Assembly (NCBI RefSeq): GCF_003018115.1
Contig: NZ_CP027457.1
Strand: one strand, 5' to 3'
Source: Escherichia coli
Lineage (GTDB): Bacteria; Pseudomonadota; Gammaproteobacteria; Enterobacterales; Enterobacteriaceae
Length of the DNA stretch: 64,000 nt
Part shown: positions 1 to 3,000 of the stretch, piece after piece
Numbering within the stretch: the first letter of the stretch is position 1
Layout: every line of letters starts with the position of its first letter
Made by a program: the position numbers

Positions 1-3000
1 TTCGTTCTAATATTTCAATCCTCAATATAAATAAGAGCAAGGAAGCTTGCCGGTTTTCACCTCTTCATTAATTTGTACATTATTTAAGGTTAACAATGAT
101 GAATAGCTCCATTAAATCGTTTTCCCTGCTGGCGGTTATATTACTGGCTGGCTGTAGCTCACCCGCTTCCCGCATCGCAGATTGCCAGGCGCAGGGCGTC
201 AGCCATGACACCTGTTATCTCGCAGAACAGCAGCGCCAGACGGCTATTTTAAGTGCTTCCGAAGCGCAGGCATTTAAAAATGCAGAAGCCGCACAACACG
301 CCCAGGCGGCAAAGAAAGCCATTTATAAAGGATTTGGCATGACCTTTAGAATGAGCAGTAAAAACTTTGCTTATCTCAATGATTCATTATGTGCAATTGA
401 TGAAGACAATAAAGATGCCACTGTTTATCAGTCAGGTCTATATAACGTCATTGTTTATCATCACACAGGAAAAGTCGCCTTAATGAAAGAAGGCCAGTTT
501 GTGGGTTATTTAAAATGAAGGAGCAAAGGAAAATACCCCTGACGCATATTATGATTATCGGTGCGTTTATTTTTGCCTTCTTGCAAGTAGTATTATTAGC
601 CTCCCTGGTTCACGCTGTGAATGTTAACAACGAAATCCAGGAAGGCTTATTTCAGTCGGGGCGCATTATGATAGAAAGTTTGCAGCATATTCTATCGGTG
701 CAAACGGGGATTCACTGATTTTCACCCCGCCCGATGATGACAGCAGCCAGAGAGATTTTCGATAATCGGGCAGTCGGCGCTGTCATCACCGGGGCAGGCA
801 TTCGCCAGCGCCAGTAGCTGGTTGCGCATAGATTGCAGTTCTTCGATATGCCGTTCGATCTCCGCCACCTTCTCCAGCGTACGACGTTTGACGTCGGCAC
901 TGTGACGCTGCGGGTCGTTAAACAGATTTACCAGCTCGCCGCTCTCTTCCAGGTTAAAGCCCACCTGGCGCGCCTGGCGCAGTAAGGTCAATTCGTTGAG
1001 ATGCTGCTGCGTGTAGGTTCGATAACCATTTTCGCTGCGCATCGGCGGCGTCACCAGCCCCTTCTCTTCATAGAAGCGAATGGCTTTGCTGGTCAGGCCG
1101 GTAATTTTTGCTACATCGCTAATGTTCATCGTTCGCGCAACGCCTCCTGTGCTTTGTTAAAGGGTTTCAACAGATAATCCAGCACGCTTTTTTTGCCGGT
1201 GCGGATATCGACCGTCGCCACCATACCGGGGAATATCGGAAACTGCTGTTTGCTTTTGTTTTCCAGATGGTTGCTGAAAGTGCGAATGTACACCCGATAG
1301 TAATAAACATCGCGCCGCACTTCATCCTGCACGGTATCCGGTGAAATCACCGCCACTTCCCCCGGCAAGCCGCCGTAGATGGAGTAATCGTAGGCAGTTA
1401 TTTTTACCAGCGATTTTTGCCCCGGATGGATAAACGCCACATCGCGCGGGGAGATTTTTGCCTCAATCAGCAGTTGCTCATCCAGCGGCACGATGGTCAT
1501 CAGTTTACCACCGGGGGCAATGACGCCGCCAACCGTGGTGACATCAATATCCTGAACAATGCCTCGCACCGGCGCAGTAAAGTTGAGCCTGGTGAGAGAG
1601 TCTTCCCGTCCACGGATCACCGAACGCTGGGTTTCCACTTCCGCATTGGCTTTTGCTAACTCTTCGCGCGCCTGAACGTAGTATTGCGTGCGCACGTCGC
1701 TGAGTTTGTTTTCCAGTTCATTGGCCTGGCGTTGCAGGCGCAGCACTTCGACGCTGCTCGCCGCCCCCTGTTTCACCAGCGGCTGGGTCATCGCCAGTTC
1801 ACGGTTGACCAGGCTAATCCCCTGCGTCAGCCCGGTGGTGGCTTTGTTCAACCCGTCGCGGCGAGTGTTGTACAACGCCGTTTCCGACTCGATAAGTTCG
1901 GGGAATTTATTCAGTTCGTCAGGGAAGACCAGCGGTTTATTACTCACTTCCGCCCGCAGCCGCGCCGAGGTTGCCAGCGCCGCGTACAGCCGCGACATCG
2001 CTTCCTGGACGTCGGATTCCGTTTTGGTGCGGTTAAGCTGCGCCAGCGGCTGGCCCTGTTCAACAATATCGCCAACCTTGACGTCGAGATGATACAGAAT
2101 TCCGCCTTCCAGCGACTGCACCACCTGTTCGCGCCCGGAGGGTTCTACCGTGCCGCTGCCGGTGGTGACTTCATCAAGCTGGAAGTACCACGCCCAGCCA
2201 AGAAAACAGAGCAGCATCACAGCGGTAACGCGTACCGCCAACGCCGAACGCGGCAGGCGGGGTTCAGTCAGGCCACGGTTATATTGCAGTTGTCCGTTCA
2301 TGCGGCAGACCCCTTATTCTTCTCCTGCAACACCACCCGTCGCGCCGTGGGCTCGCCCTGTTCACGCAAAATGGCCTCTTTCGCGCCGTCCATCACAATG
2401 CGCCCCTGATCCATCACGATTATCCTGTCGACCAGCTGCAGCATCGCCGTGCGGTGAGTGGCGATAATCAGCGTGCGATGCCCAATCCACTGTTTCAGTT
2501 GTTCGATTAAATGCGCTTCTGCCATTTCGTCCAGCGAGGCGCTGGGTTCGTCGAGCAGCACGATATTGGGTTGAGAGATGAGTAGCCGCGCCAGCAGCAG
2601 CGTTTGCCGCTGACCACCAGAGAGGCCAAATCCCCCTTCCTGAATCATGTAGTTGAGGCCGTTTTTCTGCTTCTGCACAAAGGGCAGCGCCCCGCTGAGG
2701 GTTAACGCGCGTTCGATATCTTCATCACTGGCCTCCGGCATCCCCATGGTGAGGTTTTCCCGCAGCGAACCAAAGAACAGTCGCCCGGTCTGGCTGAGTA
2801 GCCCCATGTCGCGGCGCAGATCCGCCGGATCAAGTTGCCCGATGCTGATGTTATCCAGCAGCACCTGCCCCTGTTGGGCGATACGCATTCCGGCGAGCAT
2901 TTGCAGCAGCGTTGACTTACCCGCGCCGTTGCGCCCGAGAATAGCGATTTTCTCTCCGGCCTGAATGTTGAGTTTGCCGATCGCCACATCGGCAATTTTC

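Follow-up and report, generated by a model that had tools for sequence, protein, structure and literature searches.

What are the two genes that run towards cueR at the left edge of a 64,000-nucleotide stretch of the Escherichia coli contig NZ_CP027457.1 (assembly GCF_003018115.1; hereafter the window), and what might their products do? A first-pass annotation had described here a 140-amino-acid (aa) lipoprotein open reading frame (ORF) with an LLAGC lipobox, coupled by an ATGA overlap to a 67-aa hydrophobic ORF ending 3 bp from the cueR stop codon, had recognised neither product and had placed their partner genes beyond the window edge. All these features can be read in the sequence, and the extended locus supplies the partners: a gene for a 338-aa YadA-family trimeric autotransporter adhesin (TAA) and, divergent from it, a 120-aa gene. 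The pair makes up the 3'-terminal two genes of an E. coli O157:H7 islet, O-island 29 (OI-29), which lies between ybbJ and cueR. From its context we infer, with a probability of roughly 40%, that the lipoprotein is an accessory of the TAA, acting at the periplasmic side of the outer membrane. The locus and the lipoprotein gene, z0638, are already published, the latter as uncharacterised; no description seems to exist in the searchable literature of the 67-aa gene, of the lipoprotein family, of its structure model or of the systematic association of this family with headless TAAs.

The evidence that carries this proposal is primarily contextual. A set of 49 loci was drawn from GTDB species-representative genomes, and their ORFs were called and searched with the neighbors from E. 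coli, Pseudocitrobacter and Enterobacter as well as with an anchor profile; 28 of these loci could be assessed for linkage to a TAA, a further one being cut by a contig end. A YadA-anchor protein is encoded immediately upstream and on the same strand in 16 of the 28 (a count that includes the Lelliottia locus L036, which matches only the N-terminal domain), with gaps of -38 to 327 bp. The genera concerned are Escherichia, Pseudocitrobacter, Enterobacter, Phytobacter, Rahnella, Ewingella, Yersinia and Lelliottia, and in a 17th locus, from Pantoea, the TAA gene is situated 1.9 kb upstream. The probability of such adjacency arising by chance with a gene class present at 1-3 per genome would be far below 1%. 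In the lipoprotein tree, TAA-linked members are spread over several separate clades and interspersed with nested orphans, a pattern that would fit an old linkage with repeated loss. Furthermore, a gene resembling z0640, the 120-aa gene for a helix-turn-helix (HTH)-like protein, is positioned upstream in divergent orientation in Escherichia, Pseudocitrobacter, Rahnella, Ewingella, Yersinia, Serratia and Symbiopectobacterium.

In E. coli the adhesin gene (z0639; L001 13994-15010, equivalent to window positions -1006..10) codes for a protein with a Sec-type signal peptide and a Pfam YadA_anchor match of 45.3 bits (cutoff 22.7), and this coiled-coil TAA lacks a head domain. The lipoprotein and 67-aa genes follow on the strand of the adhesin gene, separated from it by an 85-bp gap and from each other by a 4-bp overlap. 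Published RNA-seq, which covers z0638, z0639 and z0640 and does not include the 67-aa ORF, gave 20, 96 and 44 reads per kilobase per million (RPKM), respectively, in DMEM medium and 0 for all three in HeLa-attached bacteria (PMC5826968). Thus, expression of z0638 parallels that of the adhesin gene in being on in the medium and off in attached bacteria, with its RNA at about one fifth of the adhesin RNA; this parallel supports the proposed connection. As a separate observation, in the Rahnella and Ewingella TAAs encoded upstream of lipoprotein homologs the hydrophobic signal segment is preceded by about 42 additional, conserved N-terminal residues, e.g. MKAQLTERNTQIIAAYIAGNTNKIELAHYFGVSASTIRRVLAG (L012 6734-7939, L015 6153-7925, L016 5750-7936, L026 6085-7869 and possibly L017 6989-7861 from Yersinia aleksiciae). 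The extension matches many HTH families (e.g. CENP-B_N with 22.9 bits against a cutoff of 21.2, and HTH_28 with 22 bits), is contained with the YadA anchor in one ORF and seems at least as conserved as the adjacent passenger N-terminus; the E. coli TAA is without it.

The lipoprotein itself begins with MMNSSIKSFSLLAVILLAG and then, from the modifiable cysteine onwards, CSS, the lipobox being formed by L16-L17-A18-G19-C20. A profile search of 1.8 billion proteins recovered a family of 148 cluster representatives (50% identity) at E<=1e-3, and where an organism name is available, Enterobacterales predominate among the loci, joined by a handful from Aeromonas, Pseudomonas and two alphaproteobacteria (Falsiroseomonas and Skermanella). 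Following the lipobox, the N-terminal part displays the segment SRMADCxAQGVSxDTCYLAEQNRQ with two conserved cysteines. An AlphaFold2 model built from a 96-sequence alignment (mean predicted local distance difference test score, pLDDT, 84; 92-97 in the barrel) shows a hairpin of helices 23-32 and 37-70, bearing the conserved Cys30 and Cys40, and an 8-stranded β-barrel spanning residues 75-139. The N-terminal signal peptide ends in a lipobox of the form [LVI][ASTVI][GAS]C and acylation is predicted; such a lipobox is present in 69 of the 96 aligned relatives. In E. coli, lipoproteins without Asp at position +2 are sorted to the outer membrane. Because this residue is Ser here and never Asp in the family (S36, T15, V7, A4, Q3, K3 and G1 among the 69 lipobox-bearing members), the predicted destination of the lipoprotein is the inner leaflet of the outer membrane, where it would face the periplasm.

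Neither product belongs to a described family in Pfam, NCBIfam, the PDB or the public protein databases, and the first-pass annotation had likewise recognised neither. Pfam and NCBIfam searches returned only sub-threshold, signal-peptide-driven matches (TraV, TraQ, XAC1346 and Ala-zipper) for both proteins, the Pfam outcome being the same for 96 lipoprotein relatives and ten relatives consisting of the N-terminal domain only, and searches of PDB sequences with single sequences and profiles gave nothing credible. The TraV match (TIGR02747; 18.2 bits, cutoff 44.75) is confined to the signal peptide and two-cysteine segment, in a locus with no conjugation genes nearby, and was rejected, as were the Lpp/OprI alanine-zipper (NF040598; 13.1 bits against 43) and a 1,212-aa match with 8 repeats (P0219), which was judged to be a low-complexity Cys-rich artefact. 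Public databases carry both proteins only as 'hypothetical protein' or 'lipoprotein', and PGAP labels the 67-aa product a hypothetical protein.

Both ORFs are real, conserved genes. Pairwise comparisons among Escherichia alleles of the lipoprotein gave ratios of nonsynonymous to synonymous substitution rates (dN/dS) of 0.02-0.06, with dS of up to 0.41. The ratios for the 67-aa ORF are about 0 to 0.55 and are derived from few substitutions; the changes are limited to the first 10 and last 4 residues, leaving the transmembrane and periplasmic core invariant. In Pseudocitrobacter faecalis, a 64-aa ORF is 46% identical to the 67-aa protein and has the same 4-bp overlap with the lipoprotein homolog, as part of a four-gene module with 40-46% identity to that of E. 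coli (45% for a 121-aa gene, and 40-41% for the anchor and N-terminal regions of the TAA). Lack of expression or of conservation would have spoken against these genes; instead, z0638 is transcribed, as described above, and the 67-aa ORF is conserved across genera. The 67-aa protein has one hydrophobic span (residues 14-32; mean Kyte-Doolittle score 2.65) with three K/R residues before it and one after, predicting an N-in, C-out topology. It should thus reside in the inner membrane with its C-terminal tail of about 35 residues in the periplasm.

Based on these features, the lipoprotein would act on its cognate adhesin at the periplasmic face of the outer membrane, as suggested by its position directly behind TAA genes across genera and by the precedent of SadB and TpgA, the two known TAA partners. 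It might contribute to assembly, stabilization or anchoring of the trimeric barrel, being analogous to those proteins in role rather than in ancestry. The small inner-membrane protein might be a lineage-specific addition in Escherichia and Pseudocitrobacter.

Several observations weigh against this proposal. Firstly, 11 of the 28 homologs are orphans with no TAA nearby (e.g. those of Klebsiella grimontii and Raoultella, at a conserved core position); hence, members of the family either function in trans or fulfil a role that does not involve a TAA. Gene linkage alone can also reflect co-transfer. Secondly, the gene after the lipoprotein varies by lineage: it encodes the 67-aa transmembrane protein in Escherichia and Pseudocitrobacter only, another small transmembrane protein in Pantoea, and a soluble 70-81-aa protein, likewise with a 4-bp overlap, in Rahnella, Serratia and a metagenome-assembled genome, and is lacking elsewhere. 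Thirdly, each domain of the lipoprotein is also found alone. The N-terminal part occurs as 63-69-aa lipoproteins, whose neighborhoods in Buttiauxella, Aeromonas, Pseudomonas and Atlantibacter display genus-specific housekeeping synteny and no common partner, while the C-terminal part occurs behind ordinary signal peptides or fused to lipoprotein modules (DUF4156 and TolA_C), and such barrel-only relatives are found in mixed contexts, beside other surface proteins. Fourthly, the folds nearest to the model in a fold search are those of lysozyme inhibitors, not chaperones. Finally, deletion of z0638, which was treated as a hypothetical protein, left motility and the fliC and motA transcripts unchanged, and deletion of the whole of OI-29 did not affect adherence to HeLa and Caco-2 cells (PMC5826968); neither result ties z0638 to the TAA. 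The orphans, the lack of a phenotype and the lysozyme-inhibitor-like fold are the reasons for our caution, and if the pair were dispensable for the adhesin, all that would remain of the finding is a known islet with two conserved hypothetical envelope proteins. One barrel-only context may be recorded separately: in a prophage remnant with an integrase and a tail assembly gene, such a relative follows an Ail/Lom-type 8-stranded outer-membrane protein and an 89-aa gene (L061 3226-4321; L062 1670-2765), so that the domain again stands beside a horizontally acquired surface protein.

The fold similarity raises the alternative that the lipoprotein is a stand-alone protective envelope factor whose barrel inhibits lysozyme or a peptidoglycan hydrolase in the manner of MliC, PliC, Neisseria ACP and Brucella PhiA, and which rides on virulence-associated islets with no functional tie to the adhesin. 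MliC is likewise an outer-membrane lipoprotein, and the homologs without a TAA would be readily accounted for. The reported occurrence of OI-29 mainly in pathogenic lineages is also compatible with a protective role (PMC5826968). However, none of 96 members has a Pfam MliC match, the profile-profile probability is 0.3%, and the signature motifs (SxSGAxY and YxxxTKG) are not conserved; membership of the MliC/PliC family was accordingly rejected at the sequence level. The alternative also leaves the adjacency to TAAs in 16 of 28 loci unexplained and is, as a whole, unlikely.

A signaling relay in the manner of NlpE or RcsF is less probable still. Here, the lipoprotein and the inner-membrane peptide would report on the status of the adhesin or the cell surface, and this could underlie the effect of the gmrA (z0639) deletion on fliA and flagella. 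The prediction of one member anchored in the outer and one in the inner membrane, both facing the periplasm, would suit such a device, as would the lowered flagellar gene expression upon deletion of the adjacent adhesin ORF and the presence of the regulator-like z0640 in the conserved module. Against it stand the unaltered motility and flagellar transcripts of the z0638 mutant, the absence of the 67-aa partner from most lineages that retain the lipoprotein, and the lack of any NlpE or RcsF similarity in Pfam, NCBIfam and fold searches, which together make it a distinctly improbable explanation.

The identity of the islet was established by a literature search on old locus tags, after which the λ-Red homology arms given in the paper thus found were mapped onto the locus. 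OI-29 of strain EDL933 is described as a 2,643-bp island holding z0638, z0639 (gmrA) and z0640 (Yang et al. 2018, PMC5826968); by the coordinates of the present analysis its length is 2,636 bp. Both 38-39-nt arms of the z0638 deletion primers map with 0 mismatches, to window positions 57-95 and 519-556, so that z0638 corresponds exactly to the lipoprotein ORF, and by the same mapping z0639 is the 338-aa TAA ORF and z0640 the 120-aa gene. The 67-aa gene is unmentioned and unnamed in that paper and in later reviews.

This mapping also bears on the published function of the central gene. GmrA has been reported to activate transcription and to bind the fliA promoter, and its deletion to lower flagellar gene expression (PMC5826968). 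The cloning primers for GmrA span all of the 338-aa ORF: MKTVNVAL is encoded by the forward primer ATGAAAACTGTAAACGTAGCTTTA, and GVGYSF by the terminal codons of the FLAG reverse primer. What was published as 'transcription factor GmrA' is, therefore, this TAA ORF, with its Sec signal peptide and YadA anchor; the paper mentions neither of these features in z0639, nor the linkage of lipoprotein and TAA across genera (PMC5826968). OI-29 is thus an adhesin operon, which bears on the view of its central gene as encoding a cytoplasmic transcription factor.

The order of genes in and around the islet is qmcA, ybbJ, the 120-aa gene (-), the 338-aa gene annotated as 'YadA family autotransporter adhesin' (+), the lipoprotein gene (+), the 67-aa gene (+) and cueR (-), and it is the same in strains GF3-3, UTI89 and O157:H7; window positions 1-1200 match E. 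coli GF3-3 with 100% identity. K-12-like strains have ybbJ and cueR stop to stop with 0 bp between them, in line with the first-pass annotation, and the four genes therefore represent a 2.6-kb insertion. The idea of a second accessory insertion on this side of cueR hence stands as far as the insertion is concerned, while its novelty falls away given that it is the published O-island. The pair is not a conserved core feature: it was found in 1416 of 5426 complete E. coli genomes (26%), always in single copy and on the chromosome, including O157:H7, O145, O55:H7, UTI89 and RS218. No direct repeats flanking the islet were found in the junction alignment. At the left junction of island-bearing strains, a repetitive extragenic palindromic (REP)-like element (GCCTGATGCGACGCTGACGCGTCTTATCATGCC...) directly follows ybbJ (L001 13086-13150). 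The module is also present beside qmcA-ybbJ-cueR in an uncultured Pseudocitrobacter (L007 6136-10683) and in Serratia silvae (L020 7297-10620), its location in both being upstream of qmcA and not in the ybbJ-cueR interval, and in Serratia without the TAA.

The 3-bp distance to cueR, to which the first-pass annotation attached weight, arose by deletion. A fifth islet gene, encoding a 409-aa product with no Pfam family and no obvious signal peptide, is present between the 67-aa gene and cueR in E. whittamii (L008 8709-9938) and in 271 E. coli genomes, abutting cueR with 0 bp. About 695 E. coli genomes retain a remnant of it of about 720 bp (e.g. L057 3793-4523), and about 450, by subtraction, show a clean deletion, including this window, O157:H7 and UTI89. 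The C-terminus of the small protein follows suit, with ...TGING (68 aa) in full-length forms and ...TGIH/N after the deletion (...TGIH here). The 3-bp gap is the deletion scar of this fifth gene, and because the gene is intact or present as a remnant in other genomes, the close convergence is a secondary deletion and not a conserved design. The earlier suggestion of a functional convergence, wherein read-through from the pair interferes with cueR or the reverse, draws on this short gap and on the absence of terminator-like structures on either strand (the terminator scan found nothing at the junction, and the folding of positions 670-770 on either strand is no better than that of shuffled sequences, z -0.13 and -0.19). 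Yet the ancestral, island-free junction of ybbJ and cueR is tighter still, and 0.7-1.3 kb of the fifth gene separates the pair from cueR in about two thirds of the island-bearing genomes, rendering an interference function highly improbable. The notion of a phage-derived cassette, either spanin-like (Rz/Rz1-type) or for a toxic peptide, is largely refuted: the overlapping genes for an outer-membrane lipoprotein and a small membrane protein, and weak O_Spanin_T7 matches in four family members (best E 0.009), are offset by the restriction of these matches to the signal peptide and lipobox, sizes reversed relative to spanins, an islet with no holin, endolysin or other phage gene, and a chromosomal, single-copy pair under purifying selection in 1416 genomes.

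Table 1. Coordinates of the gene pair and its immediate surroundings in the window
Feature	Position	Strand	Remarks
3' end of the 338-aa YadA-family TAA gene (z0639, 'gmrA')	1..10	+	stop codon TAA at 8-10; bulk of the gene outside the window
Spacer between adhesin and lipoprotein genes	11..95	+	85 bp; weak hairpin GCAAGgaagCTTGC followed by CGGTTTT, about 37-57; AAGG Shine-Dalgarno-like motif at 86-89
Lipoprotein gene z0638 (ORF1)	96..518	+	140 aa; signal peptide and lipobox in residues 1-20; Cys20 codon 153-155; Ser at +2
Small bitopic membrane protein gene (ORF2)	515..718	+	67 aa; ATGA-coupled to the lipoprotein gene
Gap between ORF2 and cueR	719..721	.	3 bp; ORF2 stop codon 716-718, cueR stop codon 722-724 (- strand)
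cueR	722..1129	-	core gene bounding the islet; NCBIfam NF007590, 308 bits against a cutoff of 244

In the coupling of the two genes (Table 1) the ATG of ORF2 (515-517) overlies the TGA of ORF1 (516-518). A scan of the spacer between the adhesin and lipoprotein genes recovered no convincing promoter or terminator, and its folding is no better than that of shuffled sequences. On its other side, the start of cueR overlaps by 4 bp (1126-1129) the stop of an HlyD-family gene (1126-2301), which belongs to a type I secretion and giant SiiEA-like adhesin island. A 98-bp pseudogene remnant of the 3' end of this hlyD is retained upstream of cueR in K-12-like strains and UTI89 (L055 3405-3502); given this persistence, the island-free state on that side looks like a deletion rather than the ancestral condition.

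These observations acquire their significance in comparison with known systems. TAAs are widespread adhesins and virulence factors, for which only two helpers, SadB and TpgA, are known, and the candidate described here is a conserved lipoprotein encoded behind headless TAAs in at least 8 enterobacterial genera. A global survey of TAA helpers from 2026 reported no further ones; its restriction to TAAs with a YadA head domain made the headless TAAs considered here invisible to it. The MliC, PliC, ACP and PhiA lysozyme inhibitors differ from z0638 in showing no sequence or profile similarity to it and in lacking its additional helical-hairpin domain. Salmonella SadB (Grin et al. 2014, PMC3953254), a trimeric lipoprotein that assists the TAA SadA, is reminiscent of z0638 in being a small lipoprotein from enterobacteria whose gene shares an operon with that of a TAA, with an N-terminal helical segment followed by a C-terminal β domain, and an adjacent, co-oriented TAA gene likewise recurs across taxa in the 16 of 28 homologs mentioned above. 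However, its gene is situated upstream of that of its TAA, whereas z0638 is downstream, and it has Asp at +2, an inner-membrane location and a MATH-like C-terminal domain (PMC3953254), as against the Ser of z0638. Membership of the SadB/YajI family was thus rejected, there being neither sequence nor fold homology nor the retention-conferring Asp. In Acinetobacter sp. Tol 5, TpgA is the partner of the TAA AtaA in the periplasm, and its complex with the transmembrane domain has been solved (PMC12523085); it is similarly encoded with its TAA, and its site of action is the periplasmic face of the barrel. Its N-terminal domain has a BamE-like α-α-β-β-β fold and is accompanied by an OmpA-type peptidoglycan-binding domain; z0638 has neither, by Pfam or by fold, and does not belong to that family. 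It is conceivable, though rather doubtful at present, that z0638 typifies a third, structurally unrelated class of dedicated TAA partners after SadB and TpgA, namely an outer-membrane lipoprotein composed of a two-cysteine hairpin and an 8-stranded barrel that would serve short, headless coiled-coil TAAs across Enterobacterales, with the 67-aa protein as a further component in Escherichia.

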